Assembly (NCBI GenBank): GCA_046498385.1
Contig: JAWOAU010000011.1
Location: 4,315-68,314 of the forward strand
Direction of reading: 5' to 3'
Source of the DNA: Thermoplasmata archaeon
Lineage (GTDB): Archaea > Thermoplasmatota > Thermoplasmata > Halarchaeoplasmatales > Halarchaeoplasmataceae
Length of the DNA: 64,000 bases
Shown: in pieces, positions 11,824-58,283 of the stretch
Numbering within the stretch: the stretch's first letter is position 1
How the letters are laid out: each line of letters starts with the position of its first letter
The notes under the pieces: model-generated
The model's database searches: none
Seen by the model: only the letters and a program-made list of their open reading frames with translations
Told to the model about the DNA's origin: nothing
Position numbers and translations under genes: made by a program

Positions 11824-11962
11824 TTTTGATACCCCCAAGGTAACACTACAGCAAGTCTTTCTAGAATATATAAACGTTGTGTGGTAATCACCATTTTCAG
11901 ATGGTAATCGCACTCGACAACATTTATATCGTGTACCGCACCTAAACCCTCTTTGAAATAAC

Positions 11963-26027: not shown

Positions 26028-26671
26028 GGAAGTTCAAGCAGATCCGCAAGTTCGGTTAAACCCTTCCCCTTTCTGGCATTGGCTTCTATTAACGTTCCGT
26101 TGGGATTTATCTTTTTGTGATCGCTCCTGATTATGTCAAGGTCAACTTCCATCACATCCACAAGGTCCACTTTGTTCAACACCGTGATATCTGCCTGGGA
26201 AAATATCAGAGGATGCTTACGCACCATATCGTCGCCTTCTGTGACAGATATGACAACTATGTCGCCTTCCGTACCAAGGGGGAAATCTACGGGACATATT
26301 AGATTACCCACGTTCTCTATGAATAGGTAATCTATATCCTCCAGAGGTATATCTTCCAAAGCATGATTGACCAGGTGTGCGTCCAGATGACAGTCCTTTC
26401 CGGTGTTGATGGATATTGAACGTATCCCATGTGATTCAAAACGCATATGGTCGTCTTCACCTGTTAGGTCGCCAGCGATGGCCCCTATGTTTTTGTCTTT
26501 CATCCCTTTGTAAAGTGATTCTATCAGCGTAGTTTTACCAGATCCTATGGCTCCTAGTACGTTGAATGCTCTGATATTGTGTTCCTTAAATGCATGTTCG
26601 TTCAGATGAGCTATGCGTTGATTTTCTTCCAGTATGTTCTTCTCCATACTAACATCACAGATTTTGTGCAT
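26009..26671 (-). CDS. hypB: Hydrogenase nickel-incorporation GTPase HypB
   Basis: The P-loop GAIGSGKTTL, the metal-binding ENVGNLICP and NKVDL motifs of the HypB/UreG family are present. Confidence 0.85.
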   Translation of the reverse strand: MHKICDVSMEKNILEENQRIAHLNEHAFKEHNIRAFNVLGAIGSGKTTLIESLYKGMKDKNIGAIAGDLTGEDDHMRFESHGIRSISINTGKDCHLDAHLVNHALEDIPLEDIDYLFIENVGNLICPVDFPLGTEGDIVVISVTEGDDMVRKHPLIFSQADITVLNKVDLVDVMEVDLDIIRSDHKKINPNGTLIEANARKGKGLTELADLLELPYSLPR

Positions 26672-34681: not shown

Positions 34682-36826
34682 ATGCGTATCATACTGAAGG
34701 GAATCGTACAGGGAGTCGGCTTTCGGCCAACGGTTTACCGGGTGGCAAAGAACCTCGGTATGAACGGTTACGTAAAGAACATGGGGAGTGAGGTGGAGGT
34801 TGTTATCGACGGTGATGTGGACGAGTTTTTGAGTGAACTGAAAAGGGCGCTACCACCGCTTGCAAAGCTTACATCCGTGGATGTATTCGAGAGCGGTGGG
34901 ACCTATGATGATTTCAGCATAATATCCAGTACAGATGGTGACCGATCGTCCTCCATCCCGGTGGACACGGCCACCTGTAAAAACTGTGTGGCGGAGCTGG
35001 AAGATAGAAAAAATAGACGTTTCACATACCCCTTCATAAACTGCACTGACTGCGGAGCACGTTACTCCGCTATCCGGGAATTACCCTACGACCGTGAGAA
35101 GACCACAATGGCACCCTTCCATATGTGCCCTTCTTGCAGGGAGGAGTACGGCGAGCCCATGGACCGCCGATTTCACGCCCAAACACTTTCATGTCCGGAT
35201 TGTGGCCCTGGGTACACCCTTTACGATAAGAACAAGAAGAGGATAGGCGGGGTTGTGGAATTCATCTCTATGATAGAAGAAGGCTCGGTGGGTGTCGCTA
35301 AGAGTTGGGGCGGTATGCACATAGTCAGCACTCTAGATAGGATACCCGAACTCCGCAGAAGGTACGGTCGTTCACAGAAACCCTTCGCTATAATGGTTAA
35401 AGATCTAGAAACCGCTAGGAAGTACGCCCATATTACCAGGGAGGACGTGTTCACCGGTCCGAGGCGTCCCATAATGATCTACGAGAAAAAAGAACCTCTG
35501 GAAAAAGTGGCACCGGGATTACCAACGGTTGGGATGATGCTCCCCTACACACCCCTACATCATATACTGTTCGACGGGATATCTGAGGATGCACTGGTGA
35601 TGACCAGTGCCAACCTACCCGGCGAGCCAATGATAATAAAGAATAGAGATGCATTTTCACTCGATCTGGACTGCTACCTTCTGCACGATAGGAAGATAGC
35701 AAACCGCATAGACGATTCCCTCATCAGGGTTCATGGTGACGAACTCTGTCCCATAAGGAGATCAAGAGGTTACGTGCCTGAAACATTACCATTCGACAAA
35801 TCCACCGTTTTCGCCGCCGGAGCGGACCAAGGCGGTTGTCTGGCCTTTTCAACGAACGCCCATCTATACCCAAGTCAGTACTTGGGTGACCTGGGGTCCT
35901 ACGGTGCCAAGGTGTTCTACCAGAACACGGTCGAGCACCTGGAGTCCATGCTGGGTATCCAGGAGGTCGAGGCGGTTGCCGTGGACCTGCATCCCGCCTA
36001 CACCAGTAGAAAGCTCGGTTTAGAATATGCAAAAAACAAAGACATCCCGGTGGTAGAAGTGCAGCACCACTGGGCACACGGAGCATCCCTCCTTTTAGAG
36101 CACGATCTAGAACACATAGTGTGCATAGCGGTGGACGGCACGGGATATGGTGAGGACGGAGGGAGCTGGGGTGGTGAGGTATTATACTGTACCGCTGATG
36201 AATACGAAAGAACGGCACATCTGGAACCGTTCCCTCTACTGGGTGGAGAGCAGGCGGTAAAATATCCTAAAAGGTTGGCCCACGCCATCCACAGAAAGCT
36301 CGGTCACGATAGCCCATATTTCGACGACAAAACCGCATCCATATTGGATAAGTTGATGGATAAGAGCGTTAACACCACCAGCTTCGGTAGGCTGCTGGAT
36401 GCGGTATCGGCCGCACTGGGAGCGTGCACCGGACGTACATACGAGGGGGAACCGGCCATGAAGCTGGAGAAACTGCAGTTGGAAGGTGAAAATACCAGAG
36501 AATATACGGTTTATCGAAAGGGAGATACCATACACACACTGAAAGGGTTCGTTGAGATGCTAAAAGACCGTTCACCCGATGCAGACAGGGCGGCTTCCTA
36601 CGCCGCACAGGTATCATACGCTTTGTCAGACGCCGCAGCGGACGCCGCAGAAAAGTACGGCGCACCCGTAGGCATCTCCGGGGGAGTTTCCTACAACAGA
36701 CACATAGTGGATCAGGTACGAAGCCGGTTAAAAGAACGCGGATACCAACTGTTGGTGCATCAAAGAGTACCAAATGGAGATATGGGCGTGTGTGTCGGCC
36801 AAGCATCCATCGCCGCCAGTATGTGA
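34682..36826 (+). CDS. hypF: [NiFe]-hydrogenase maturation carbamoyltransferase HypF
   Basis: There is an N-terminal acylphosphatase domain (GIVQGVGFRPTVYRVA), two CxxC-x18-CxxC zinc fingers, YrdC-like and Kae1-like domains. The protein is 714 aa. Confidence 0.9.
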   Translation: MRIILKGIVQGVGFRPTVYRVAKNLGMNGYVKNMGSEVEVVIDGDVDEFLSELKRALPPLAKLTSVDVFESGGTYDDFSIISSTDGDRSSSIPVDTATCKNCVAELEDRKNRRFTYPFINCTDCGARYSAIRELPYDREKTTMAPFHMCPSCREEYGEPMDRRFHAQTLSCPDCGPGYTLYDKNKKRIGGVVEFISMIEEGSVGVAKSWGGMHIVSTLDRIPELRRRYGRSQKPFAIMVKDLETARKYAHITREDVFTGPRRPIMIYEKKEPLEKVAPGLPTVGMMLPYTPLHHILFDGISEDALVMTSANLPGEPMIIKNRDAFSLDLDCYLLHDRKIANRIDDSLIRVHGDELCPIRRSRGYVPETLPFDKSTVFAAGADQGGCLAFSTNAHLYPSQYLGDLGSYGAKVFYQNTVEHLESMLGIQEVEAVAVDLHPAYTSRKLGLEYAKNKDIPVVEVQHHWAHGASLLLEHDLEHIVCIAVDGTGYGEDGGSWGGEVLYCTADEYERTAHLEPFPLLGGEQAVKYPKRLAHAIHRKLGHDSPYFDDKTASILDKLMDKSVNTTSFGRLLDAVSAALGACTGRTYEGEPAMKLEKLQLEGENTREYTVYRKGDTIHTLKGFVEMLKDRSPDADRAASYAAQVSYALSDAAADAAEKYGAPVGISGGVSYNRHIVDQVRSRLKERGYQLLVHQRVPNGDMGVCVGQASIAASM

Positions 36827-45549: not shown

Positions 45550-48549
45550 ATGAAAAAAGATGTTTTAATAATCGGCGGCGGAATCTCTGGCGTTCAATCC
45601 GCACTTGACCTGGCCCAGAAGGGTTATGAGGTGGTGCTGGTTGATAAATCTCCTAGTATAGGTGGGAACATGGTGAAATTGGATAAGACTTTTCCTACTA
45701 ACGACTGTTCTATATGCATATCGGCTCCTAAGATGGTGGAAGCCAGCAGGAACGAGAATATTACATTACTGACTTACTCGGAGGTAAAGGAACTTATCGG
45801 CAACGCTGGTGGATTCAAGGTTAAAATCTGGAAGAGAACAAAGTACGTTGACCCCGAGGTCTGCACAGGATGCGGAGACTGCGAAGAGGTCTGTCCGGTG
45901 GAAGTACCGAGCGAGTTCGAGCAGAAATTGTCCGACAGAAAGGCGATTTACGTTGAATTCCCTCAATCGGTTCCCCTCACATACACCCTGGATTACGCAA
46001 ACTGCGTGGGCTGCGGCGCCTGCGAGCGGGTGTGCGATGCCGGGGCCATCAATTTCCTGGAAAACTCAAGGGAGATCGCGATAGAGGTTGGAAGCATAAT
46101 CGTGGCTACGGGTTACGAGATGATGCAGCCCGACGAGTGGAGGGAAGAGTACGGTTACGGTAAATATCCCAATGTGTTAACAGCCATGGAGTACGAGAGA
46201 TTGCTGTCCGCCTCAGGACCCACCGGCGGCAAGGTGCTGAAAAGAAGTGACGGAAAACCCCCGGAGTCGGTCGCGTGGATACAGTGCGTCGGCTCCAGGT
46301 GCAAGCAGAAGGGTATGCCCTACTGTTCAAGGGTATGCTGTATGTACGCTACCAAACAAGCGTCCATAAGCAAGGGAGAGAATCCGGAGCTTGATACTGC
46401 GGTTCACTACATTGATCTTAGGGCTTATGGCAAGGACTTCCAGCAGTACTTTGACAAGGCGAAAAAAGAGGGTGTCAACTATTTAAGGGGCAGGCCGTCT
46501 AGAGTTTACCAGACCGAGGATGGAAGGTTAGCAGTAGAATATGAGGATACTGAAAGGGGAGAAGTCACAACTAACGTCGTCGATATGGTAGTCTTGTCTG
46601 CAGCCATTATACCATCCTACGGAAACCAGAAGTTGGCGGAGATTTTGGATATAGAGTTAGACGAGAACGGTTTCTTCGAATCCAAGGATCTTCTCACTGC
46701 ACCTACGGATTCTACACGGGAAGGTATCTACCTAGCTGGATGTGCCCAAGCACCTAAGGATATTCCCGACAGTGTTGCACAGGCCAGCGGTGCAGCGGCA
46801 CAGGCGATGACCCCTATCAAGAACAGGAAAAGGAAAGGTGTACCAGAGAAAACTCCTGAAAAAGATGTAAGCGCCGAAGGACCGTGCATAGGCGTTATCG
46901 TTTGCGACTGCGGAAAGAATATAGCTAACTATATCGACGTTCCGGATGTAGTGGAGAGAATAAAGGATTGGCCGGGTGTTGTCCACGTTGAAGAGACCAT
47001 GTTCGCATGCTCTGAAGACTCGCAGACGAGAATCAAAGAGATGATCGAAGAAAAGAACCTGAACAGGCTGGTGATAGCGGCATGTTCGCCGACCACCCAC
47101 GGACCACTTTTCCAAGATACCTTGGAAGAAGCCGGATTGAACCGCTACCTTTTCGAGATGGCAAATATAAGAAATCAGTGCAGCTGGGTTCATAGTCATG
47201 ATGTCGAAAAAGCCACTGATAAAGCAGAGATCTTGACAGAGATGGCAGTCGAGAAGGTGAAGAATTTAAGTCCCTTGGAAGAGCAGACCATCGAGATCAG
47301 AGACCGGTCGATAATCATAGGGGGAGGTGTTGCGGGGATGCAAACTGCGCTGAGCCTTGCGGATTCCAGCATCAAAGTTACCTTGATAGAGAGGGAAGAA
47401 AAACTCGGGGGTAAATTGAACACGTTGAATACGCTTTTCCCAACCGATATCGATGCCCAGGAATTAGCTGACAAGCTTATACATCTCGTGGGGGACAGCG
47501 ATAATATCAGGGTGATGACAAATGCCAACATCGAAGCTATCGACGGGTACATAGGCAATTATGAAGTGCAGGTAGATGGAGAGACGATAGATGGGGACAC
47601 GATAATCCTAACCACTGGATTCCAGGAGATCGATCCAACTGATTTCTATCACTACGGTGATGACGACCGGATAATGACACAGCTGGAACTCGACCGGGCT
47701 CTTCAAAGGGACGAATTGAAAGACCCGAAAAATGTCGTTTTCATCAACTGTGTAGGTGCCATGGAAGAAGAAAGACCGTGGTGCTGTCGTGTAGGATGCG
47801 GGAACTCACTGAAGAACGCCAAAGCGATCAAAGAGAAATATCCAGATTCAAACGTTTACATCATGTACAAAGACATGAGGGTGTTCGGTAAAAGGGAAGA
47901 GGAGTACTACATGGACGTTTCAGAGAAGGACGGGGTCATCTTTCTTCGATACTCGACGGAGAATAAACCCGATGTCACTGTTGGAGAAGATCAGCTCGAC
48001 ATCAAAGTTTATGACAACCTTTTGGATGAGGACTTGGAGATAGATGCGGATTATCTTGTTCTCGCTATGCAACTCGAAGGTGACAAGAGCGCAAGAGAGC
48101 TCAAAAAGATGTTGAAGATCTCTTCTAATCCAGCGAACTTTTACATGGAGGCACACGCCAAACTAAGGCCTTTAGAATTCCCTGCCGAAGGTGTTTATCT
48201 GGCAGGTGGGGCACACTATCCAAAAAACATCTCGGATACTTTGGCTCAAGCCCTAGGAGCCGCTTCGAAGGCTTCGATCCCTATGATGAAGGGGTTCACT
48301 AAAAGTGAAGGCATAACTGCAGTCGTTGACGAAGACACCTGCATGGGATGCAGATTGTGTATAGATGTGTGCCCCTTCGGATCCATCGATTTCAACGAAG
48401 AAAAAGGTGTTGCAAAAGTTACTCCCGTTCTTTGTAAGGGGTGCGGGCTCTGTACTGCTACATGCCGTTCAGGTTCTATACAACAGAAGGGGTTTACGGA
48501 TAACCAGATACTTTCTATGATCAAAAATGCCACCAAAGGGGCGACTTAA
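45550..48549 (+). CDS. hdrA: Heterodisulfide reductase subunit A, a double-length (999 aa) form with two complete FAD-binding HdrA modules and ferredoxin-like domains
   Basis: The first module begins [24 protein letters not shown] and includes ...CxxCxxCxxxCP. The second begins at about residue 590 with [19 protein letters not shown]...GGKL, followed by [12 protein letters not shown] and [11 protein letters not shown]. Confidence 0.9.
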
Positions 48550-48550
48550 T

Positions 48551-48991
48551 ATGGGGGATGAAAATAAAATAGGAAATTGGGACCCGGTCATCGTCGGTTT
48601 CTGCTGTAACTGGTGCAGTTACGCCGGTGCAGATCTCGCAGGAACATCTAGAGAGCAGTACCCACCGAATATCAGGGTTATCAAGGTCATGTGCTCGGGC
48701 AGGATAAGTCCGGAATTTATTTTGAAGACGTTCCAGGAAGGGGCAGACGGCGTGCTGGTTTCTGGCTGCCATCCGGGAGATTGCCACTACATAGAAGGGA
48801 ATTACTACACTCGAAGAAGGCTGACCATCCTTTGGGATTTCCTAGATTACATGGGTATAGAACCAGAAAGACTTAAGCTATCATGGATATCGGCAGCCGA
48901 GGGCAAAAAATTCGCAAACGTTGTTGAGGAGTTCACTGACAAGGTGAGAGAACTAGGACCGCAGAAAAAACTACGGAAAGGGGTAGAATGA
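48551..48991 (+). CDS. mvhD: MvhD/FlxD-like delta subunit ([2Fe-2S] electron-transfer partner of HdrA)
   Basis: The motifs [19 protein letters not shown] ... KVMCSGRI...[10 protein letters not shown] match MvhD. The protein is 146 aa. Confidence 0.85.
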
Positions 48992-49872
48992 CCAGAGATT
49001 ACGAAAAGATAGAAGAAGAGATAAAAGAACAGGCGAAGGAGTGGCTGGAAAACGACGACGTGAATTACCTTATAGGATATGAAAAGGGGTCCGACCCACT
49101 CATCGCGAGACCAGTCTTCATCAGAACTCCAGAAGATGCAGACAGGTTAGTATGGAATCAGGGATGCGTCAACAACCTCACGAGATTTTTGGTCGAGAAC
49201 ATAAGGAAAGAGAAGGACACCACAATCGGTATAGTCGTGAAACCGTGCGACTCCAAAGCGATCGTCGAACTGATCAAGGAGAACGTTCTACCAAGAGAAA
49301 GAATGAAGATAATAGGCGTTACATGTGAAGGCATGATAGATAAGGACAAGGAAGAGGACGATACCTTGGCAGATAAGTGTCAGGTCTGTACAACTCATAA
49401 TCCAGTTATAGCCGATGTTGTCTTTGGCCCCGAAGTCGAGGAAGATTTTACAGATGAATATCAAGATATACAGGACATCGAAGAGATGGATGTTGAGGAG
49501 AGATGGGAGTACTGGGAAGATCAACTTTCCAAGTGCATACGCTGCTATGCGTGCAGAGACGTATGCCCAATGTGCTATTGTGAGGAATGTGTTTTCGAGC
49601 GTGAGAAACCACATCGATGGCTGGACAAGAGCGTTACGAAAGAAGATAATTTTTTCTACCACATGATAAGAGCGTTGCACCTTGCGGGTCGATGTATAGA
49701 CTGCGGTGAGTGCGAGAGGGTCTGTCCCATGGACATCCCTATAAGAAAGATGAACAGGATATTGGAGAAATGTGTGAAAAAGAGATTCGATTTGAAACCA
49801 GGTATGGATGTGGATGATAAAAGTCTGTTCGGTTCTTATGATAAAGATGATCCAGAGGAGGTCATTGTATAG
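48988..49872 (+). CDS. Iron-sulfur cluster-binding protein (FlxC/FrhB-like) with two 4Fe-4S ferredoxin motifs
   Basis: The motifs [16 protein letters not shown] and [12 protein letters not shown] are present. The protein is 294 aa and overlaps mvhD by ATGA. Confidence 0.6.
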
Positions 49873-49873
49873 G

Positions 49874-50917
49874 ATGAGTGATACAGTGAATTATGTCCTA
49901 AAAAAAGAGGATTTAACTGACTTCCTGAGTTCATTTTCAGATTATAAAGTTGTTCTGCCCGTAAAAAAGGACGGAGCAGTCAAGTTTAGAACGTACGATG
50001 GCGAAGGGCCTGATTTGGAAGTTGGGCCCACACAAAAATCATGCAAAGAAGTCTTCTTCCCACAGACGGAAAAGATGTTCGACTTTAAAAGAGAAAGGAA
50101 CAGATTCGTCGGGACGGAAGAAGTAAATTTTGAGCCTGAAAAAACCCTCCTATTTGGTGTAAGGCCCTGCGATGCCAGGGCGATGACACAATTGGACAAA
50201 GTTTTCGGAGAAGACTACAGGGATAACTACTATATGGATCGAAGGGAAAAAACAACTATCATCTCCGTAGGATGTGAAGAATCCGCTAAGAACTGTTTTT
50301 GTACATCCGTGGGTGGTGGACCTCATACCGAGGAGGGCTCTGATATGCTCTGGACAGACATAGGCGACAGCTACCATGTTGAGATTCTCACCGAGAAAGG
50401 TGAGGAGATAGTCAAGAACACCGAGGATTTCTTGGACAAGGCATCCAAGGAAGATGAAAAGAAATCGGAAAAAGTGAAGGAGGATGCGGTGGATAAGATA
50501 AATAGATCACTGGATACTGATGGCCTACAGGATGCCCTAGAAGACGTGTTCGAAAACGATTACTGGGAGCAGGTAGCAGATAGGTGCATAGGCTGCGGTA
50601 TCTGCACGCTATTGTGTCCTACTTGTTACTGCTTCGATATCAACGATATTATAGTTGGAGATAAGGGGTGGAGAGAACGCAACTGGGACTCTTGTCAATT
50701 CGATTATTATTCCATACACGCTTCGGGATACAACCCGAGACCCGAGAAAAAGCACAGGCTGAGAAACAGATTGTATCACAAGTACCTATATATGCCTAAG
50801 AATATCGACGTGATCGGCTGTGTTGGATGCGGGAGATGCATAACGAATTGTCCCACGGACATAGACATAATCGAGGTACTGGAACAGGTGGAGGAGGTGA
50901 GTAGCGATGGAAAATGA
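49874..50917 (+). CDS. AsrA/HydB-like 4Fe-4S subunit (sulfhydrogenase-beta / anaerobic sulfite reductase A family)
   Basis: The motifs CIGCGICTLLCPTCYC and CVGCGRCITNCP are present. The track ORF starts at 49808. The likely start is MSDTVNY at 49874. Confidence 0.65.
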   Translation: MSDTVNYVLKKEDLTDFLSSFSDYKVVLPVKKDGAVKFRTYDGEGPDLEVGPTQKSCKEVFFPQTEKMFDFKRERNRFVGTEEVNFEPEKTLLFGVRPCDARAMTQLDKVFGEDYRDNYYMDRREKTTIISVGCEESAKNCFCTSVGGGPHTEEGSDMLWTDIGDSYHVEILTEKGEEIVKNTEDFLDKASKEDEKKSEKVKEDAVDKINRSLDTDGLQDALEDVFENDYWEQVADRCIGCGICTLLCPTCYCFDINDIIVGDKGWRERNWDSCQFDYYSIHASGYNPRPEKKHRLRNRLYHKYLYMPKNIDVIGCVGCGRCITNCPTDIDIIEVLEQVEEVSSDGK

Positions 50918-51854
50918 TTCACCATACAGACCATTCACCGCAACACTCATAGATATCAGGTTGGAGTGCGGTGGAGAAAGACCCATAAGAACCTTTAGAT
51001 TGGAAATAGATGATGAAGAAGCAAAAGAAAATTTTGATTACAAGCCAGGTCAGTTCGTGATGGTTTCCGTGTTCGGAGAAGGAGAATCTCCATTCGCGCT
51101 GTCATCCCCCCCTACCGATGAGGTACTCGAGGTCACAGTGATGAGGGTTGGTAATGTGACAACTAGTCTCCATTCGTTGAACGTAGGAGACAAGGTAGGT
51201 ATTAGAGGGCCCTACGGAAATGGTTTCCCAGTGGGGGAATGGGAAGGTAAGAACTTGGTTTTCATCGGTGCAGGTATAGGTATAGCGCCCCTTCGCTCGG
51301 TATATGGTTATGTTCTCAGTGATGAACATCGGGACAAATTTGGAGATGTGAACCTTATTTACGGTGCCAGGAGCATAAACGATATGGCTTACAAGGACCA
51401 ACTAGAGGAGTTGGGCGGAAGAAACGACTTAGAGCTCTGGAGATGCATAGATTGGAACTTCGGTGAAGAAGGCATCATCAAAGAGTGTGCTGAAGAGGGA
51501 TGGGAACCGGTCGATCTAGATTATAAGGAAGAGACGAGGACTTGTTCACTCGATAACTGCTACACTGCGTTCGTTCCAGAGCTGGTGAGAATCGTAGAAC
51601 CGGATCCCGAGAACACCATAGCACTTACATGCGGTCCACCCATAGCTATCAAACTCACCCTAAAAGCCTTGATGGATTTGGGTTGGCAGCCTTCAAATGT
51701 TTACACTACTTTGGAGAACCGGATGAAATGCGGTATAGGTAAATGCGGCCGGTGCAACATAGGGAACAAGTACGTTTGTAAGGATGGGCCAGTCTTCAAT
51801 TATGAAGAGCTGATGGAGATGAAACCGGAGAACGAAGTCACCGAGGAGGCCTAG
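50907..51854 (+). CDS. AsrB/HydG/PyrK-like FAD- and NAD(P)H-binding subunit with a C-terminal 2Fe-2S
   Basis: The FAD/NAD ferredoxin-reductase fold is indicated by RTFRLEID...PGQFVMVS...GPYGNGF...VFIGAGIGIAP. The C-terminal cysteines are CGIGKCGRC...C. Confidence 0.7.
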   Translation: MENDSPYRPFTATLIDIRLECGGERPIRTFRLEIDDEEAKENFDYKPGQFVMVSVFGEGESPFALSSPPTDEVLEVTVMRVGNVTTSLHSLNVGDKVGIRGPYGNGFPVGEWEGKNLVFIGAGIGIAPLRSVYGYVLSDEHRDKFGDVNLIYGARSINDMAYKDQLEELGGRNDLELWRCIDWNFGEEGIIKECAEEGWEPVDLDYKEETRTCSLDNCYTAFVPELVRIVEPDPENTIALTCGPPIAIKLTLKALMDLGWQPSNVYTTLENRMKCGIGKCGRCNIGNKYVCKDGPVFNYEELMEMKPENEVTEEA

Positions 51855-51867
51855 GGGTTGAATTAAC

Positions 51868-52254
51868 ATGAAAGTGAAAAGAGATAAGGAATTTCTTGAT
51901 AAAGTAGAAGAACTGTCAGGACAGTCAGTCACTTCTTGTATCCGATGCGGGACTTGTTCTGCTGGATGTCCTTTTGTGGAGGAAATGGACGAACTACCAG
52001 AGAGAGTATTCGAAAGGATAATCCTCGGTGACAAAGAAGGGGTGTTGGAGAGGAACACCATGTGGATATGTGCAGCGTGCTTCCAGTGCAGCGTGAGATG
52101 CCCGAGGGATATCGATATCGCCAAGATCATGGAAGCAGTAAGACAGATCACGTTAAGAAAAAACATCGATAAAGTAGATTTAGATCATGTGGAAAATATG
52201 GCTGAACTACCGCAGCTCGCTGTAGTTGGCTGCTTCAGGAAGGAGACTGGATAA
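51868..52254 (+). CDS. hdrC: Heterodisulfide reductase subunit C-like (2x4Fe-4S)
   Basis: The motifs CIRCGTCSAGCP and CAACFQCSVRCP are present. The protein is 128 aa and lies immediately upstream of hdrB. Confidence 0.8.
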   Translation: MKVKRDKEFLDKVEELSGQSVTSCIRCGTCSAGCPFVEEMDELPERVFERIILGDKEGVLERNTMWICAACFQCSVRCPRDIDIAKIMEAVRQITLRKNIDKVDLDHVENMAELPQLAVVGCFRKETG

Positions 52255-52255
52255 C

Positions 52256-53110
52256 ATGGACGGGGATGCACTGTTGTACTATCCAGGATGTACGCTAAAG
52301 ACAAAGGCCAGCGATTACGAACAGAGCGCTATGGCGGTCATGGAAGCTCTGGGGAAACCGTTGGTCGAGATGGATAACTGGTACTGTTGTGGAGCCGTCC
52401 AATCGTTGACCACCGATGATATCATGCACCAGATCGCACCGATAAGAACAATGTGCTGTGCACAGGAACAGGGTGAGAAAGAAGTCATCACGCTGTGTGA
52501 TATGTGCTACAACGTTCTAAAACAGGCTAACGAGAGGATGAAGGATAAACCGGATGACCTGGAAACAATGAACGAGTTCCTGACCGAGGATTCGGATTAC
52601 GAAGGTAACGTAGATGTAAAACACCTTTTCCAGATATTGATCGATATGAAGGACGAGATCAAGAAGCGGGTTACCAAACCATTGGATAATCTAAAAGTGG
52701 CTACTTACTACGGCTGCATGCTGTTAAGACCGGACATTGTCGCCATCGACGGCCCTGAGAACCCGACTATCATGGGAGATCTGCTGGAGTGCACTGGTGC
52801 ACAGGTGATCAGAACCCCGAAGAGGACAGAATGCTGTGGATCGTATCACACGGTAAACAGGAGCGATATCGTTGAAAAGAGGGTGGAAGATATCGTGGGC
52901 AGGGCCGTGGAGGAGGGGGCAGAAGCCATCGTGCTTTCGTGCCCCTTGTGCCAGTTCAACCTTGACTTTCACCAAAGGGCTACCGAATACGAGATACCGG
53001 TCTTTTACCTGACCGAACTGATAACCCTCTCATTTGGATTGGATGTAGAGATGAAGAAACATAAGGTCGACCCGAAAAAATTACTAAAGGATAAGGATAT
53101 TTTGGAGTGA
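52256..53110 (+). CDS. hdrB: Heterodisulfide reductase subunit B-like (two CCG domains)
   Basis: The segments YYPGCTLKT...WYCCGA and YYGCMLLRP...ECCGS are present. The track ORF starts at 52226. Confidence 0.85.
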   Translation: MDGDALLYYPGCTLKTKASDYEQSAMAVMEALGKPLVEMDNWYCCGAVQSLTTDDIMHQIAPIRTMCCAQEQGEKEVITLCDMCYNVLKQANERMKDKPDDLETMNEFLTEDSDYEGNVDVKHLFQILIDMKDEIKKRVTKPLDNLKVATYYGCMLLRPDIVAIDGPENPTIMGDLLECTGAQVIRTPKRTECCGSYHTVNRSDIVEKRVEDIVGRAVEEGAEAIVLSCPLCQFNLDFHQRATEYEIPVFYLTELITLSFGLDVEMKKHKVDPKKLLKDKDILE

Positions 53111-53117
53111 GATTGGT

Positions 53118-53834
53118 ATGCCTGAAGATGAAGAGAAAGATAAAGAAGAGGAAGAAAATCTAATCGACATATACGTCATGGGTAAGAGGTACAAAGTACC
53201 CGAAGGACTCACTATCATGACTGCGCTCGAGTATGCAGGATACAAGTTCGTACGTGGATGTGGTTGCAGAGGAGGTTTCTGCGGAGCGTGTGCCACGGTC
53301 TACAGGAGTAAGGACGAGTACAAGTTGAAGATGGATTTAGCGTGTCAAACGGCAGTCGAGGAGGGAATGTTCTTGGTGCAGCTACCCTTCGTTCCTGGTG
53401 TCAGGGAAGAATATGACATCGATGAAGTGAATCCTGAGAAAAGGGACAACGTGATGTTGGAGTACTATCCTGAGATCGCCAGGTGCGTATCCTGCAATAC
53501 CTGCACAAAATCTTGTCCACAAGATATCGAAGTGATGGATTACGTACAGGCAGCGCTACGAGGGGATATCGAAAGATGTGCAGATCTATCGTTCGATTGT
53601 ATCCAATGCGGTTTATGCTCTATAAGATGTCCCGCAGATATCAAACATTATCATCTCGCACAGCTTGCTAGGAGGATAACTGGCAAGTATATTGACAAGG
53701 ACAGTGAAGAACTTGAGAAGAGGGTTAAAGAGATCGAGGAAGGAAAGTTCGATAAAGATTTCGAAAAATTGGTCAACATGAGCGAAGAGGAGTTGAAGAA
53801 AGCCTATGACGAGAGAAAATTCGAAAAGGAGTGA
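53118..53834 (+). CDS. Succinate dehydrogenase / fumarate reductase iron-sulfur subunit (SdhB/TfrB-like; 2Fe-2S plus 4Fe-4S/3Fe-4S)
   Basis: The 2Fe-2S segment is RGCGCRGGFCGACA. The motifs CVSCNTCTKSCP and CIQCGLCSIRCP are also present. Confidence 0.75.
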   Translation: MPEDEEKDKEEEENLIDIYVMGKRYKVPEGLTIMTALEYAGYKFVRGCGCRGGFCGACATVYRSKDEYKLKMDLACQTAVEEGMFLVQLPFVPGVREEYDIDEVNPEKRDNVMLEYYPEIARCVSCNTCTKSCPQDIEVMDYVQAALRGDIERCADLSFDCIQCGLCSIRCPADIKHYHLAQLARRITGKYIDKDSEELEKRVKEIEEGKFDKDFEKLVNMSEEELKKAYDERKFEKE

Positions 53835-55492
53835 TCACGATGGCTGACGGTTATCCAGAATATATGAGAAAATCCATTGAAAAAGTAGAAAAAACGAGAC
53901 CTGATAGGATCGGTAAGACCTTCGAAAGGATGTCAGCTGAACAGGCTGATGAGACGCTTCATAACTTCCATCCCGATTATAGAGAAGGTGGAAAAAGAGA
54001 AATTAAAATAGGGCCCAGTAAGGGTGAGATCGGTCCGACAGAACTTGTAGATCTCCTGGAGGCTCACAGCCTCATCGCCCCTTCTGATATAGATCTGTCA
54101 CAGGTAGATCACGATGTCGATATACTGGTCATCGGAGGCGGGGGTGCAGGTACAGTTTCAGCTCTCTGGGCTGTAAAAGAAGGCATCAAACCGGAGAATA
54201 TACTAATATCTACAAAACTCAGACACGGTGATGCAAACAGCATGATGGCACAAGGAGGGATTCAAGCTGCTGATAAGAAAGATGATTCACCTGTACAGCA
54301 TTACTTAGATGCCATGGGAGGAGGGCACTACACGAACAAACCCGAACTAGTAAAGATACTGACCAGAGATGCACCGAAGATAATCCACTGGCACGAAGAA
54401 CTTGGAGTGATGTACGATAGGGACGAAGATGGTAATTTTATCGAATTGCCCGGTGGTGGAACATCTAGGTACAGATTACACTCTGCTAGAGATTATACCG
54501 GTCTTGAACTGATGAGGGTCATCAGGGATGAAGCTAGGAATTTAGAGATTCCTGTATTGGAGTTCACCCCAGCGGTAGAACTCCTTAAGGATGATAAAGG
54601 TCAGGTGGCCGGTGCGATCCTGATGAATTTGGAGACCAATGAATACTACGTCGTCAAAGCAAAGTCAACAGTTATGGCAACTGGTGGTTTCGGTAGACTG
54701 CACATACAATCATATCCTACGACAAACCATTATGGCGCCACCGGAGATGGTCTCATAATGGGCTACAAAGCTGGCATCCCCTTGAGAGATATGGACAGCG
54801 TTCAATATCATCCAACTGGTGCAGCTTATCCAGACCAGATAGTAGGGCTTCTTGTTACAGAAAAGGTTAGAAGTCTAGGTGGTCAACCAGTGAATAAACA
54901 CGGAGAACTGTTCGTGAATCCTCTCGAACCTAGGGATATCGAAGCATCTGCACTTATCAGGGAATGCTACGGAAGAGATAACGGTGTAACAACACCTACG
55001 GGGATGAAAGGTGTCTGGCTTGATGCTCCGTTGATAGATGAGATCAAGGGTGAAGGAACGGTAGCTGAAAGGCTCCCCGCTATGGTAAGACAGTATGAGA
55101 GGTTCGGAATCGACATGACAAAGGATCCAATATTGGTATTTCCCACACTTCACTATCAAAACGGCGGTTTAGTGATCGATACAAACGCATCTACACCTGT
55201 ACCAGGATTGTTTGCTGGTGGTGAGGTAGAAGGTGGTGTCCACGGGAAGAACAGACTGATGGGTAATTCTCTGTTGGACTACAGCGTATTCGGTAGGATA
55301 GCAGGTATCAGTGCTGCTAAGCACGTTAAGAAAGCAAAGATTGGTAAGCTGAGCCTCCAACACATAACGGATTACGAAAAAGAGATGGAGAAGAACGGGA
55401 TAAAAACGGATAGAGAATCGCCTATGCTTCTGCCGGAGTACAGAGGTAAGAGAGTATTAGAAAGGCACCTCGATGTAGAGGTGACCCTGTAG
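53831..55492 (+). CDS. Fumarate reductase / succinate dehydrogenase flavoprotein subunit (SdhA/TfrA-like)
   Basis: The dinucleotide fold is DILVIGGGGAGTVSALWA. The covalent/FAD region QGGIQAA and the conserved HYQNGG are present. The protein is 553 aa. Confidence 0.85.
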   Translation: MITMADGYPEYMRKSIEKVEKTRPDRIGKTFERMSAEQADETLHNFHPDYREGGKREIKIGPSKGEIGPTELVDLLEAHSLIAPSDIDLSQVDHDVDILVIGGGGAGTVSALWAVKEGIKPENILISTKLRHGDANSMMAQGGIQAADKKDDSPVQHYLDAMGGGHYTNKPELVKILTRDAPKIIHWHEELGVMYDRDEDGNFIELPGGGTSRYRLHSARDYTGLELMRVIRDEARNLEIPVLEFTPAVELLKDDKGQVAGAILMNLETNEYYVVKAKSTVMATGGFGRLHIQSYPTTNHYGATGDGLIMGYKAGIPLRDMDSVQYHPTGAAYPDQIVGLLVTEKVRSLGGQPVNKHGELFVNPLEPRDIEASALIRECYGRDNGVTTPTGMKGVWLDAPLIDEIKGEGTVAERLPAMVRQYERFGIDMTKDPILVFPTLHYQNGGLVIDTNASTPVPGLFAGGEVEGGVHGKNRLMGNSLLDYSVFGRIAGISAAKHVKKAKIGKLSLQHITDYEKEMEKNGIKTDRESPMLLPEYRGKRVLERHLDVEVTL

Positions 55493-55494
55493 GG

Positions 55495-55713
55495 TTGACA
55501 CTGATGATAGAAGTAAATGAGGATTACTGTAAAGGATGCAACCTGTGCATATTGTTCTGCCCTAGGGATGCACTCGAGGAGAGTGAAGAATTGAACAAAA
55601 AAGGAGTTCATCAACCAGTGGAGATAGAAGGTAGATGCAACAACTGCAGATTGTGTGAATTGATATGTCCGGACTTTGCTATTACGGTTGTTGAGGATGA
55701 AGAAGATGAATGA
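55495..55713 (+). CDS. 2-oxoacid:ferredoxin oxidoreductase delta subunit (ferredoxin-like), second OFOR locus
   Basis: The motifs CKGCNLCILFCP and CNNCRLCELICP are present. The protein is 72 aa. Confidence 0.75.
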   Translation: MTLMIEVNEDYCKGCNLCILFCPRDALEESEELNKKGVHQPVEIEGRCNNCRLCELICPDFAITVVEDEEDE

Positions 55714-56869
55714 AGAAGATTTCGACTTAGAGAAGGTAAAAAAGGTATTGGGTGCCAAGCAGCAGTTCATCCACGGCGATGCAGCCGTTTGCTACGGTGC
55801 ACTATTGGCGGGGTGCACTTTCTTCGGCGGATATCCCATAACACCGGCTTCTGAGATAGCCGAGATGATGTCAAGACTGCTACCCAAGGTCAGTGGTAGA
55901 TATATCCAGATGGAGGACGAGTTGGCGAGTATGGCATCGATCATCGGATCTTCGTGGACAGGTGCCAAAGCCATGACTGCAACCAGTGGACCCGGTTTTT
56001 CCCTTATGCAGGAGAATATAGGTTTCGCTGCTATGAGTGAAACACCAGTTGTTGTTGCTAATGTTCAAAGATCGGGGCCGTCTACAGGTCAGCCTACGTT
56101 GGGGGCACAGGGAGATGTCATGCAGGGCAGGTACGGCTCTCACGGTGATTATCATCCCATAGTTTTATCTCCTAACACTATCCAAGAGACCGTAGAATTA
56201 ACGATCAGAAGTTTCAATCTTGCAGAGGAGTACAGGACACCTGTTTTCTTGTTCATTAGTGCCGATTTGGGCCACATGAGAGAGATGATAGAGATACCAG
56301 ATGAAGTAGACCTATTTTACAGGAAGGAACCTAAGGTCCGTCCGGATGAGTATATACCCTTCGGAGAAGGTAATTACGGTAAGAAGAAAGTCCCTGAATT
56401 CGCCCCGTTCGGCACAGGGTACAGAACTTACGTTACTGGTTTGACACACGATGAACACGGATTCCCTGCAACGGATGACCAAGAAGATCACGACAAGCTG
56501 ATTCGAAGACAGATGGAGAAGGTCACCGATGATAGGGAGATATTAACGGATATCGAAGAGAGAAACATCGATGATGCAGATATAGCTATACTATCATACG
56601 GTATAGCTAGCAGGAGTGCGTTAGGTGCGGTTAACAAAGCGAGGAGACAAGGCAACAAGGTGGGCTATTTTAGGCTTAAAACACTTTGGCCGTTCCCTAT
56701 AAAAGCTGTAGAAGAGCTTTCAACAAAAGTAGACAAGATAGTTGTTGCGGAGATGAATACAGGCATGCTGTATCATAAAGTCAACGAATACGCTGATTGC
56801 AAGGTCGTTCTTGCCAGTGAGATCGGTGGAGAACTACACAAACCCGACGAGATATTGGAGGTGATCTGA
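55706..56869 (+). CDS. 2-oxoacid:ferredoxin oxidoreductase alpha subunit (paralog 2)
   Basis: The motifs GDAAVCYGALLAGCTFFGGYPITPASEI...TSGPGFSLMQENIGFA are present. The track ORF starts at 55676. The chosen start is MNEEDFD, overlapping the delta stop. Confidence 0.88.
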   Translation: MNEEDFDLEKVKKVLGAKQQFIHGDAAVCYGALLAGCTFFGGYPITPASEIAEMMSRLLPKVSGRYIQMEDELASMASIIGSSWTGAKAMTATSGPGFSLMQENIGFAAMSETPVVVANVQRSGPSTGQPTLGAQGDVMQGRYGSHGDYHPIVLSPNTIQETVELTIRSFNLAEEYRTPVFLFISADLGHMREMIEIPDEVDLFYRKEPKVRPDEYIPFGEGNYGKKKVPEFAPFGTGYRTYVTGLTHDEHGFPATDDQEDHDKLIRRQMEKVTDDREILTDIEERNIDDADIAILSYGIASRSALGAVNKARRQGNKVGYFRLKTLWPFPIKAVEELSTKVDKIVVAEMNTGMLYHKVNEYADCKVVLASEIGGELHKPDEILEVI

Positions 56870-56871
56870 AG

Positions 56872-57744
56872 ATGGTTTCAGAGAATAAAACTAAGAACGT
56901 AGACGTAGCTAGCGGTGAAAAGATAAGGGAAAAATACCTGAGAAAGGAGATGATGCCGCATATATTCTGCAACGGATGCGGTCTAGGTAATGTACTGGAT
57001 TACACACTCTGGGCCATAGAAAAGGAAGGCCTCGATATGGATAACACGGTCTTCCTATCCGGCATCGGCTGCTCTTCCAGGATACCGGGCTATGTGAAAG
57101 TCGATGCACTTCACACGACTCACGGCAGAGCACTAGCATTTGCTACTGGGGTCAAAGTAACAAATCCAGAGCTGAGCGTAGTCGTTTTCACCGGCGATGG
57201 TGATTGCATCGGTATAGGTGGAAATCACTTCATCCACGCCGTTAGAAGAAATATCGATCTGACCGTTATAGTGGTCAACAATTTCATCTATGGGATGACT
57301 GGAGGACAGGTTGCTCCGACGACGCCCGAAGGAGATTATGCAACTACTGCACCTTACGGTTGTATCGAACCCCCATTCGATATAAGCAAGATGGCGATTG
57401 CAGCTGGGGCATCATACGTTGCTAGATGGCCTGTTAACCGACCTAATCAACCAATCAACTCTATACGTCAGGGGCTTCAGAATAAAGGGTTCAGCTTAAT
57501 CGAGATGCTTTCACCATGTACGACAGCATACGGAAGGCGTAACAAATTCAGAGAGATCAAGGACCTTTGGAATCACTACGAAGAGATAACTATACTTACT
57601 GAAGATTACGATATGATCATGAAGTATGGTAGTGAAGAAGAGAAGAAGGAGATCAAAGATAAGATAAAAATCGGGGTGCTGCACAACGAGAGTAAGATAT
57701 CTTTAGGTGAAAGGTACGAAGAACTATTGGAGAGATTTAAATGA
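56872..57744 (+). CDS. 2-oxoacid:ferredoxin oxidoreductase beta subunit (paralog 2, TPP-binding)
   Basis: The motifs FCNGCGLG...GIGCSSR...FTGDGDCIGIGGNHFIHAVRRN are present. Confidence 0.88.
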   Translation: MVSENKTKNVDVASGEKIREKYLRKEMMPHIFCNGCGLGNVLDYTLWAIEKEGLDMDNTVFLSGIGCSSRIPGYVKVDALHTTHGRALAFATGVKVTNPELSVVVFTGDGDCIGIGGNHFIHAVRRNIDLTVIVVNNFIYGMTGGQVAPTTPEGDYATTAPYGCIEPPFDISKMAIAAGASYVARWPVNRPNQPINSIRQGLQNKGFSLIEMLSPCTTAYGRRNKFREIKDLWNHYEEITILTEDYDMIMKYGSEEEKKEIKDKIKIGVLHNESKISLGERYEELLERFK

Positions 57745-58283
57745 GGAAGAATATACGATTGTGTGGAAGCGGTGGTCAGGGCATTATGACTGCAGGTTAT
57801 ATCCTTGGAAAAGCAGCATCGGTTTTCCATGACTACAATGCCGTACAGATGCAGAGCTATGGCCCAGAAGCGAGGGGAGGGGCGGCCCGTTCTGAAGTAG
57901 TTATATCCGACCGTGAGATCGGATACTGTGGATTACCTAGTACTGACAATATGATGGTGATGTCTCAACCCGCTTGGGACAAGTACCACAAGGACCTTAC
58001 AGAGGAATCTATCGTTGTATTGGACCCGGACCTAGTTGTCAATTATGATTTCGAAAATGTCATAGAGATTCCAGCCACCCAGATGGCTGAGGACCTGGGT
58101 AATAAGATCGTGGCAAATATTGTCATGATCGGCGGATTCAACGCTGTTACAAAGCTGGTTCCCGACGAGGCATTGGAGGAATCCGTCAAGGACAGCGTAC
58201 CCAAACAATTCACGGAATTGAACTTTAACGCCCTGAAGAGGGGAAGGGACTACGTTACCAGTCACCACACCAAGAAGGATTGA
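57741..58283 (+). CDS. 2-oxoacid:ferredoxin oxidoreductase gamma subunit (paralog 2)
   Basis: The motifs LCGSGGQGIMTAGYILGKAA...SYGPEARGG are present. Confidence 0.85.
   Translation: MRKNIRLCGSGGQGIMTAGYILGKAASVFHDYNAVQMQSYGPEARGGAARSEVVISDREIGYCGLPSTDNMMVMSQPAWDKYHKDLTEESIVVLDPDLVVNYDFENVIEIPATQMAEDLGNKIVANIVMIGGFNAVTKLVPDEALEESVKDSVPKQFTELNFNALKRGRDYVTSHHTKKD

Follow-up and report, generated by a model that had tools for sequence, protein, structure and literature searches.

A predicted fumarate reductase module with HdrC- and HdrB-like subunits in a Flx-Hdr operon of a Thermoplasmata archaeon

Results

Organization of the four-gene locus

We have analyzed a stretch of 64,000 nucleotides (nt) from a Thermoplasmata archaeon (NCBI GenBank assembly GCA_046498385.1, contig JAWOAU010000011.1, positions 4,315 to 68,314 of the forward strand), referred to here as the window, with a focus on four adjacent genes that encode proteins related to the HdrC and HdrB subunits of heterodisulfide reductases and to the iron-sulfur and flavoprotein subunits of succinate dehydrogenases and fumarate reductases. 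An earlier assignment of this region, made from the DNA alone (the original prediction), had described HdrC-like, HdrB-like, SdhB-like and SdhA-like proteins as products of a split thiol:fumarate reductase or an anchor-less type-E succinate dehydrogenase. The four open reading frames (ORFs) were recovered on the forward strand exactly at positions 51868-55492:

51868-52254, + strand, HdrC-like gene, 128 amino acids (aa), two [4Fe-4S] clusters, two CxxCxxCxxxCP motifs
52256-53110, + strand, HdrB-like gene, 284 aa, two CCG domains
53118-53834, + strand, gene of a FrdB-like Fe-S subunit, 238 aa, one [2Fe-2S] and two [4Fe-4S] clusters
53840-55492, + strand, gene of a FrdA-like flavoprotein, 550 aa, FAD_binding_2 (E 4.5e-70), predicted fumarate reductase with non-covalent flavin adenine dinucleotide (FAD)

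The genes hdrC, hdrB, frdB and frdA are separated by intergenic gaps of 1, 7 and 5 nt. Translation of the HdrB-like protein starts at ATG 52256, 1 nt past the hdrC stop, and not at TTG 52226. The ATGA overlap that had been described for the last gene is not found, as frdB ends with the TGA at 53832-53834 and the likely start of frdA is the ATG at 53840, which is preceded by a GGAG 8 nt upstream and agrees with the NCBI model of the protein (P0001, 550 aa, 100% identity, named 'FAD-binding protein [Thermoplasmata archaeon]'). An alternative frdA start at GTG 53831 would instead create a GTGA overlap.

Sequence properties of FrdA and FrdB

In alignments to 1nek_A, 2b76_A and 7d6v_A, FrdA keeps the equivalents of the E. 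coli SdhA residues H242, T254, E255, R286, H354 and R399, and its residues H324, T340, E341, R344, H438 and R472 do not vary among 85 sequences, comprising the window protein and its counterparts from the 84 other loci of the survey described below. The histidine that covalently binds FAD (SdhA H45, FrdA H44), whose presence in the SdhA-like protein the original prediction had suggested to check, is missing and replaced by an asparagine in 85 of 85 members (N133 in the window FrdA). Complex-II enzymes that have lost their covalent FAD, as in H44 mutants of E. coli FrdA, retain fumarate reduction and lose succinate oxidation. The asparagine at this site, combined with the preserved catalytic set, therefore points to fumarate reduction by FrdA, which we predict from its sequence to be a fumarate reductase with non-covalent FAD.

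The placement of FrdA and of the HdrB-like protein within their families was judged by scores against curated profiles, gaps in sequence identity and architecture. The best-scoring curated family for FrdA is TfrA (NF004900), where it reaches 342 bits (cut-off 718) with a match confined to profile positions 7-427 of 546, and the nadB model scores 260 bits. There is no match to Pfam Succ_DH_flav_C in FrdA, where only 78 aa follow R472 and the classical C-terminal domain, which spans about 165 aa in TfrA, is absent. Conversely, its N-terminus carries a highly conserved extension of about 96 aa. The designation as 'SdhA-like' thus holds for the catalytic residues but not for the two termini and the covalent-FAD site.

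Among 1.84 billion cluster representatives searched for relatives, the FrdA family collapses into a single 50% cluster (P0241; 64% identity, 814 bits), and the next full-length relatives follow at 519 and 484 bits with 49% and 45% identity. The family and these sisters share the asparagine at the covalent-histidine site, 83-101 additional aa at the N-terminus (in P0242, a fused FrdB instead) and a tail of 24-82 aa after the catalytic arginine, compared with 102-213 aa in nearly all other sampled representatives. Extension, short tail and asparagine were seen in almost none of these approximately 55 other representatives, which lack the N-terminal extension and include a few long multidomain or partial sequences outside the 102-213 aa range of the tail. 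One representative that passes the TfrA cut-off (P0309, 765 bits) has classical termini and a glycine at the histidine site, and is 40% identical to the window FrdA.

In FrdB, 12 cysteines are invariant in 79 orthologues. They form a C-x4-C-x2-C-x17-C pattern, as found for the 2Fe-2S cluster of SdhB, and two complete CxxCxxCxxxCP motifs and, since both motifs are complete, the protein is assigned two 4Fe-4S clusters and not one 4Fe-4S and one 3Fe-4S cluster. Its profile scores are low (35.7 bits for the N-terminus of TfrB, NF004898, with a cut-off of 385, and 24.7 bits for dhsB) and no SdhB chain is found among its 60 best PDB matches, out of 118 at E<0.1. The earlier label 'SdhB-like' consequently captures the architecture, with its 2Fe-2S domain and two 4Fe-4S motifs, but not the sequence, by which FrdB is only a distant relative of SdhB and TfrB. 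Public annotations of its orthologues conflict and include 'HdrC', 'SdhB-like', 'NuoI' and '2Fe-2S protein'. As the gene is located directly upstream of that of the flavoprotein in 79 of 79 loci, we consider FrdB a fair working name.

Sequence properties of the HdrC- and HdrB-like subunits

The HdrC-like protein matches HdrC (8rvv_C) with an E value of 3e-16. With 128 aa, it is shorter than the chains of solved HdrC proteins (183-191 aa), its eight cysteines are invariant in 61 orthologues, and it scores 67 bits with TIGR03290 (cut-off 160) and 29.3 bits with TfrB. The HdrB-like protein shows a full-length match to the solved HdrB structures 8rvv and 5odc (E ~1e-34) and contains all ten CCG cysteines that act as ligands of the non-cubane 4Fe-4S clusters, each of which is invariant in 65 orthologues. 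Its scores remain below the cut-offs of all three relevant profiles, with 149 of 345 bits for HdrB (TIGR03288), 160 of 500 bits for SdhE (NF042965) and 35.3 of 385 bits for TfrB. Ten orthologues, including two from Methanofastidiosia/Methanofastidiosum, score 127-176 bits as HdrB and 111-166 bits as SdhE. Judged by these values, the protein belongs to a separate subfamily that is about as distant from true HdrB as it is from the SdhE 'anchor'. In terms of profile scores, it does not fall within the bona fide HdrB proteins, a grouping that the original prediction, in combination with mcr genes elsewhere, had regarded as incompatible with its proposal. The window protein contains an additional Cys-Cys pair (C67-C68, encoded at 52454-52459) between the elements of the N-terminal CCG motif, which is present in 11-12 of the 65 orthologues.

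A 13-gene operon with an Flx-type input module

The four genes form part of a 13-gene operon on the forward strand (45550-58283) with the order hdrA-mvhD-flxC-flxB-flxA-hdrC-hdrB-frdB-frdA-korDABG and distances between genes of -65 to +13 nt. In this operon, FrdBA and a 2-oxoacid:ferredoxin oxidoreductase of four subunits are added to the genes of FlxABCD-HdrABC. Besides the four genes listed above, it contains:

45550-48549, + strand, hdrA, 999 aa, tandem double HdrA (two FAD/TrxR-like units, ferredoxin domains), the proposed site of flavin-based electron bifurcation
48527-48991, + strand, mvhD/flxD, an MvhD-type electron-transfer subunit (FlpD, E 1e-57), with DNA homology to the Mvh-type locus L005 up to 48960
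48988-49872, + strand, flxC-like Fe-S protein, 294 aa, 4Fe-4S dicluster at residues 179-250, 50-57% identity to the gene at the same position in loci L058 and L067
49808-50917, + strand, flxB-like Fe-S protein, 369 aa, matches to ShyB (E 4e-58), HydB (9e-54) and AsrA (5e-44), Fer4_22
50907-51854, + strand, flxA-like subunit (HydG/ShyC/AsrB-like), 315 aa, FAD_binding_6, NAD_binding_1 and DHODB_Fe-S_bind, PRK08345 (E 1e-74), the proposed entry site of NAD(P)H
55504-58283, + strand, korD-korA-korB-korG, a four-subunit 2-oxoacid:ferredoxin oxidoreductase, the predicted consumer of reduced ferredoxin

The location within an Hdr operon had been recognized correctly, as hdrA, mvhD and the three Flx-like genes are found upstream and korDABG downstream. 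Three points had been overlooked, namely the NAD(P)H module of the Flx type, the 2-oxoacid:ferredoxin oxidoreductase encoded next to the four genes, and the bifurcating complex that has already been proposed in print for this gene set (PMC6315080). Equally borne out was the claim that a membrane subunit is missing. Since no 19-residue segment with a mean Kyte-Doolittle hydropathy of at least 1.6 is found in any of the 13 proteins (maximum 1.59), no membrane subunit is encoded in the operon. There is a single HdrA, a single HdrBC pair and a single FrdBA pair, and no gene of a thiol carrier was found in the operon by inspection of ORFs and domain content.

HdrA aligns to 8rvu_a in three sections (residues 5-375 to 154-524, 437-609 to 4-176 and 848-994 to 508-652), with an E value of 7e-204 for the whole protein, and scores 1055 bits with the HdrA2 model, just under its cut-off of 1100. 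The HdrA proteins of relatives are likewise about 1000 residues long (1004 aa in locus L004). Such a tandem protein would correspond to a fused pseudo-dimer of a subunit that is homodimeric in the solved Mvh-Hdr complexes.

KorA passes the cut-off of PRK08659 with 533 against 411 bits. At 21316-24096, the forward strand of the window encodes a further 2-oxoacid:ferredoxin oxidoreductase with four subunits (delta, alpha, beta, gamma), which is 40-49% identical to the enzyme of the operon.

Distribution and gene context of FrdA relatives

To survey the occurrence of the module, one genome per GTDB species was scanned for close relatives of FrdA and ORFs were called in 84 loci from about 80 species, with assignments made by BLASTP to the window proteins and to MvhA, MvhG and FumAB from a relative. 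Close relatives of FrdA were detected in at least 591 species of archaea and bacteria, the best 80 being all at least 59% identical. Archaeal carriers include Thermoplasmata, Theionarchaea, Methanofastidiosum, Bathyarchaeia, Thor- and Borrarchaeota, Culexarchaeum and a metagenome-assembled genome (MAG) of Thermoproteota (isolate Kor1), and bacterial carriers include Chloroflexales/Oscillochloris, Thermotogae, Bipolaricaulota/Acetothermia, Spirochaetota, WOR-3, Aerophobetes, Aminicenantes, Acidobacteriota and Eubacteriales.

The genes of HdrC, HdrB, FrdB and FrdA are contiguous in 46 of 71 loci, and HdrBC is found elsewhere in the same locus in nine more. In the 56 loci with long flanks, HdrA is present in 41, MvhA together with MvhG in 26, FlxA in 8, Kor linked to FrdBA in 32 and a class-I fumarase in 15, and MvhA never accompanies FlxA (0/56). 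The Mvh [NiFe] hydrogenase and the Flx NAD(P)H module are thus exchangeable inputs which never occur together in the sampled flanks. The order of genes varies considerably, with HdrB-KorDABG-HdrA-MvhD-FlxCBA-FrdBA in two loci of Eubacteriales (L046, L055), FrdBA-KorDABG-HdrA-HdrCB-MvhGA in some Thermoplasmatales (L063, L066, L068, L070) and FumAB/HdrCB-FrdBA-HdrA in Bathyarchaeia. As the order is shuffled and the gene set is kept, we take this pattern as a sign of functional coupling rather than of inherited synteny. In five loci, HdrC-HdrB-FrdB-FrdA remain contiguous without HdrA nearby (L002, L016, L060, L065, L082), from which it follows that HdrBC is tied to FrdBA and not only to HdrA.

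Different associations are observed in sister clades (L085/L086, 9366-12891; L087, 5250-7433). In MAGs of Gammaproteobacteria (45% identity), FrdB and FrdA are followed by a NuoF-like subunit (Complex1_51K, NADH_4Fe-4S) and no Hdr genes are found, an arrangement that looks like a simple soluble NADH:fumarate reductase. In one MAG, FrdB is fused to FrdA in a protein of 727 aa. Together with the cassettes that stand alone in some archaea (see below), the pairing with the NuoF-like subunit identifies FrdBA as a portable catalytic module that is combined with different electron inputs.

Several loci show peculiarities of their own. Five from Chloroflexales/Oscillochloris (L034, L039, L042, L062, L076) represent a third variant with the order HdrA-MvhD-FlxC-like-HdrC-HdrB-FrdB-FrdA-KorDABG, which contains neither FlxA, FlxB, MvhA nor MvhG and has no evident electron donor. 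A contig of 5.8 kb binned as 'Spirochaetaceae bacterium' (L006, PWGF01000061.1) encodes MvhA-HdrCB-FrdBA-Kor at 72-84% identity to Thermoplasmata genes and is probably a mis-binned archaeal contig. In an Asgard locus (L001), about 2 kb without a called gene (2624-4591) separate korG from mvhD at the place where hdrA would be expected, which may, by analogy to the Hdr-Mvh of Asgard archaea (PMC9723677), encode a HdrA with an in-frame UGA specifying selenocysteine.

Replacement of the input module in the window

All close relatives of the window locus (L004-L015, 75-89% identity in FrdA) contain mvhG-mvhA at the place where the window has flxC-flxB-flxA. When compared with its closest relative L005 by blastn, the window is homologous at 45550-48960 (hdrA and mvhD, 70.6%) and at 51868-58243 (hdrC to korG, 81%), and no similarity is detected in the intervening flxCBA region (48961-51867), which is located opposite to mvhG-mvhA of L005 (5576-8029). 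The breakpoints coincide with the stop of mvhD and the start of hdrC. Since two blocks of homology flank unrelated input genes, the donor has been exchanged from H2 to NAD(P)H and the remaining operon was kept. The best matches of the window FlxCBA proteins are found in Flx-type clusters of other Thermoplasmatota (L058, L067; 49-59% identity). Relatives carry divergent fumarase genes upstream of hdrA, which are missing in the window, where tblastn searches detected no fumarase, mvhA or mvhG at any position. The window encodes two [NiFe]-hydrogenase maturation proteins, HypF at 34682-36826 (+ strand) and a HypB/CobW-type GTPase at 26009-26671 (- strand), despite the loss of Mvh from the operon, and a different [NiFe] hydrogenase is probably retained at some other site of the genome.

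Further features of the window include a predicted surface protein of 2208 aa at 5368-11994 (- strand), which combines the N-terminus of an archaeal type-IV pilin with CARDB, VWA and MAM-like domains, and a tRNA-Leu(GAG) identified by ARAGORN at 18423-18507 (- strand), which scores under the Rfam gathering score for tRNA.

Discussion

A proposed bifurcating fumarate reductase

On balance, we consider it likely, though not strongly so, that the four genes encode the output half of a soluble bifurcating multi-subunit complex formed by the products of the whole operon, and neither a stand-alone thiol:fumarate reductase nor a succinate dehydrogenase. We base this assumption of a coupled complex on the conserved catalytic residues of FrdA, on the linkage of the genes in many lineages, on the exchange of the input module, on the presence of single copies of HdrA, of the HdrBC pair and of the FrdBA pair, on the lack of a thiol carrier, on the tight packing of the genes, on thermodynamics and on the earlier proposal for bacterial symbionts. 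In such a complex, NAD(P)H would be oxidised at the FlxA-like flavoprotein and its electrons would be handed on by FlxB, FlxC and MvhD until they reach the FAD of HdrA, the tandem protein, where each pair would be split. The high-potential electron would proceed from HdrA to HdrC, to the non-cubane clusters of HdrB, to the two [4Fe-4S] clusters and then the 2Fe-2S cluster of FrdB, and finally to the non-covalent FAD of FrdA, where fumarate would be reduced to succinate. The low-potential electron would reduce ferredoxin for use by the co-transcribed KorDABG, which would probably carboxylate succinyl-CoA to 2-oxoglutarate. The overall reaction would be:

2 NAD(P)H + fumarate + 2 Fd(ox) -> 2 NAD(P)+ + succinate + 2 Fd(red)

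With standard potentials E0' of +33 mV for fumarate/succinate (PMC5861303), -320 mV for the pyridine nucleotide and about -450 mV for ferredoxin (Fd), this reaction would amount to approximately -43 kJ/mol per 2 NAD(P)H, fumarate being a better high-potential acceptor than CoM-S-S-CoB, the mixed disulfide of coenzymes M (CoM) and B (CoB). The sequences show the gene content, the cofactor-binding motifs and catalytic residues, the lack of membrane segments, the linkage in both domains and the exchangeable Mvh/Flx inputs, and we infer the assembly into a physical complex, the bifurcation, the direct transfer from HdrB that avoids a free thiol, fumarate as substrate and the direction of the reaction. 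Of the original prediction, the part that stands is that of a cytoplasmic fumarate reductase served by HdrB/HdrC-type Fe-S subunits, in view of the invariant catalytic residues, the lack of membrane segments and the linkage to HdrCB in both domains of life.

Several observations weigh against this proposal. In solved structures of Mvh-Hdr complexes, the non-cubane clusters of HdrB constitute the catalytic end of the electron transfer chain and not a relay and, as all ten cluster cysteines are retained in the HdrB-like protein, thiol/disulfide chemistry would be possible at this site. The available flanks of 13 out of 71 loci did not reveal an HdrBC pair, and in two loci of Methanofastidiosia (L002, L003) and one of Theionarchaea (L016) the cassette of four genes is isolated, HdrA, Mvh and Flx all being absent within 10 kb, so that its function or regulation can be independent of HdrA. 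The specificity of Kor for 2-oxoglutarate is presumed, with a score of 361 bits for PRK09627 at a cut-off of 579. Models of FrdA (pLDDT 60, pTM 0.66, alignment of 12 sequences) and FrdB (pLDDT 47, 22 sequences), which were predicted with AlphaFold2 from alignments of close relatives only and are assessed here by the local (pLDDT) and global (pTM) confidence scores of the program, are too poor to define interfaces. Finally, neither a biochemical test of any member nor the wording 'bifurcating fumarate reductase' was found in the literature searched.

Alternative explanations

The closest competitor of a coupled complex, which we regard as rather unlikely, is a thiol-based mechanism in two steps, where a HdrCB-FrdBA enzyme would oxidise a thiol pair at the HdrB clusters to reduce fumarate and Flx-HdrA, together with the same or another HdrBC, would re-reduce the resulting disulfide along with ferredoxin by bifurcation. 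The thiols could be CoM-SH and CoB-SH in methanogens and another thiol or a DsrC-like protein elsewhere. Such chemistry is in line with the strict invariance of the ten CCG cysteines binding the catalytic non-cubane clusters, with the isolated cassettes of Methanofastidiosia and Theionarchaea and with TfrB of methanogens, which likewise couples SdhB-like and CCG domains for reactions with thiols and in which, as reportedly described by Heim et al. in 1998, both domains are fused in one protein. However, with a single HdrBC pair, a free thiol would be reduced and re-oxidised at the same site and would thus be an unnecessary intermediate, and the operon does not encode a carrier for it. The gene set is also found in Chloroflexales, Thermotogae, Bipolaricaulota, Spirochaetota and other bacteria, which to our knowledge are not known to make CoB. 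This wide bacterial distribution, the missed cut-offs of the TfrA and TfrB profiles and the absence of a CCG fusion speak against the label of a split thiol:fumarate reductase, as does the HdrB-like protein, which scores far under the curated HdrB cut-off even in Methanofastidiosum. A thiol-dependent mechanism has been put forward as alternative model by Rubin-Blum et al. (PMC6315080).

It is also conceivable, although improbable in our view, that two independent enzymes share one operon, with FlxABCD-HdrABC acting as NAD(P)H:ferredoxin/disulfide oxidoreductase and a separate FrdBA being fed by ferredoxin or another carrier, both serving the branch to 2-oxoglutarate. The sister FrdBA proteins, which at 45% identity are paired with a NuoF-like NADH module, indicate that other donors are possible, some loci contain HdrCB that does not adjoin FrdBA, and the NADH-dependent fumarate reductases of Hydrogenobacter and Aquifex contain accessory subunits of a non-Hdr type (PMC10052474). 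An independent action of both enzymes is at odds with the five loci where HdrC-HdrB-FrdB-FrdA are contiguous away from HdrA, with the retention of HdrABC, FrdBA and a donor module through the shuffling of gene order in both domains, and with hosts that lack a candidate disulfide substrate. Less probable still is a flavoprotein with a substrate other than fumarate, which could resemble L-aspartate oxidase or be a different reductase of enoates or 2-enoyl acids with the same active-site residues. The His/Arg catalytic set and the non-covalent FAD are also found in L-aspartate oxidase, the nadB score is near that of TfrA (260 and 342 bits), and the unusual termini of FrdA leave room for an altered specificity. 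On the other hand, TfrA is the top-scoring curated family, class-I fumarase and Kor are linked to the module in 15 and 32 of 56 loci, respectively, and an Fe-S partner adjoins FrdA wherever both were found (79/79), whereas we know of no such partner for L-aspartate oxidase.

We find it hard to envisage an anchor-less type-E succinate dehydrogenase that oxidises succinate in a respiratory or confurcating mode, as implied by the second label of the original prediction. It would agree with the similar scores of the HdrB-like protein for SdhE and HdrB (160 and 149 bits) and with the second 4Fe-4S motif of FrdB, which replaces the 3Fe-4S motif as it does in type-E SdhB. Succinate oxidation requires covalent FAD, and the asparagine found instead of the respective histidine in 85 of 85 sequences argues against it, as do the absence of SdhF, of a membrane segment and of the C-terminal domain of SdhA, the distance of the SdhE score from its cut-off of 500 and the Hdr context, which replaces that of a quinone. 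Confurcation of electrons from succinate (+33 mV) and ferredoxin (-450 mV) to NAD+ (-320 mV) would in addition be endergonic by about 110 mV, and this mode was rejected on grounds of thermodynamics and the missing covalent-FAD histidine.

Implications for Hdr complexes outside methanogens

In many non-methanogenic anaerobes, genes of Mvh-Hdr or Flx-Hdr complexes are found that are orphans with respect to their disulfide substrate. Genome papers usually transfer the reduction of CoM-S-S-CoB from methanogens to such Hdr proteins (PMC12542636, PMC11287216, PMC8163825, PMC9723677). The linkage to FrdBA, found in at least 591 species of both domains with exchangeable inputs from H2 or NAD(P)H, offers a testable answer for a large share of these orphan complexes. 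In organisms without CoM, CoB and Mcr, many complexes of the MvhADG-HdrABC and Flx-HdrABC types could have fumarate, reached via FrdBA, as their physiological acceptor at high potential, with the HdrB clusters acting as relay instead of as thiol/disulfide catalyst, a generalization that we find plausible but somewhat short of probable. It would apply to Thermoplasmatota, Asgard archaea, Bathyarchaeia, Theionarchaea, Chloroflexales, Thermotogae and Bipolaricaulota. If true, the acceptor would be fumarate and the reduced ferredoxin would pay for the adjacent 2-oxoacid synthase, so that a reductive branch of the tricarboxylic acid (TCA) cycle would make its own low-potential electrons. Fumarate reductase would then join the bifurcating enzymes, in a new class of flavin-based electron-bifurcating systems that use H2 or NAD(P)H to reduce a C=C bond and ferredoxin and feed the synthesis of 2-oxoglutarate.

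Comparison with known systems

Among the known systems close to FrdBA and HdrCB is TfrAB of Methanothermobacter, which is equally soluble and anchor-less, has the same catalytic residues, lacks the covalent-FAD histidine, combines a 2Fe-2S with two 4Fe-4S clusters and attached CCG-domain chemistry, and serves the reductive branch to 2-oxoglutarate. The two systems differ in that TfrB is one polypeptide composed of an SdhB-like part and two CCG domains, compared with three genes including an additional HdrC-like ferredoxin in the window, and in the termini of FrdA, with its N-terminal extension of about 96 aa, the lack of the C-terminal domain of about 165 aa and about 40% identity to P0309. 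All TfrA and TfrB cut-offs are missed.

Type-E succinate:quinone reductases (SdhABEF of Sulfolobus and Acidianus, MfrABE of Campylobacter) similarly combine an HdrB-like subunit containing two CCG domains with a flavoprotein and an Fe-S subunit that has a full second 4Fe-4S motif. In contrast to these, the window system has no SdhF, no membrane association and no covalent-FAD histidine, contains an additional HdrC-like protein and is found in the context of HdrA and Flx and not of a quinone.

The relationship to MvhAGD-HdrABC and FlxABCD-HdrABC is evident in the cluster ligands of MvhD, HdrC and HdrB, which are all kept, in the Flx-type module and in the predicted bifurcation at the FAD of HdrA. 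The full set of FlxA-D and HdrA-C is present in one cluster, a correspondence to FlxABCD-HdrABC that concerns domain content and gene order and not a comparison of sequences with Desulfovibrio. The differences include the tandem HdrA, the short HdrC of 128 aa, the HdrB and HdrC scores under the curated cut-offs and the proposed acceptor, which would be fumarate via FrdBA and not CoM-S-S-CoB or DsrC.

The NADH:fumarate reductase with five subunits from Hydrogenobacter thermophilus (Miura et al. 2008, cited in PMC13147460 and PMC10052474) resembles the window system in the soluble FrdA (~64 kDa) and FrdB (~27 kDa) with additional input subunits, in the use of NADH and in the reductive direction of the TCA cycle. 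Its accessory subunits are a 59.5-kDa, a Nox-like 53-kDa and a DmsB-like 19-kDa protein with homologues in Aquifex, and not HdrABC and Flx, its genes are scattered in the genome and no bifurcation is reported.

The system that comes nearest to the window operon has been described in Thioflavicoccus mobilis and in symbionts of tubeworms, in the latter of which the genes frdB frdA hdrC hdrB korDABC hdrA flxDCBA are conserved and co-expressed and for which Rubin-Blum et al. (2019) have proposed a bifurcating HdrABC-FlxABCD-KorABCD-TfrAB complex, alongside a thiol/DsrC shuttle as alternative (PMC6315080 and supplement). Co-expression in the Riftia symbiont supports the operon (Mitchell et al. 2024, PMC11636981; bioRxiv 10.1101/2023.11.26.568696), and the idea of a bifurcating complex has also been applied to Bipolaricaulia and comes up in a survey of the reductive TCA cycle from 2026. 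For archaea and other phyla, papers deal with the components one at a time, by assigning Mvh-Hdr to the reduction of CoM-S-S-CoB and FrdA to a 'thiol:fumarate reductase', 'terminal oxidase' or 'SdhA', with one noting the co-location without interpretation, and no recognition of the form linked to the MvhAG hydrogenase, the most common one in our sample, was found in the literature searched. The window shares with the bacterial cluster the co-directional genes hdrA, flxD, flxC, flxB, flxA, hdrC, hdrB, frdB, frdA and a four-subunit kor, the internal order hdrA-flxD-flxC-flxB-flxA and the proposed function, an NADH-driven bifurcation to fumarate reductase and to ferredoxin for a 2-oxoglutarate:ferredoxin oxidoreductase. 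It differs, in a comparison of gene content and order and not of sequence, in its archaeal host (a Thermoplasmata MAG), in the location of hdrCB-frdBA between flx and kor, in the absence of acl, idh, mdh and pntAB, and in its close relatives, which have MvhAG in place of Flx. The window is thus an archaeal Flx-type example of a kind of gene cluster already proposed for bacteria and, although the concept is not new, it adds breadth and an archaeal representative to an idea that is in print for bacterial symbionts.

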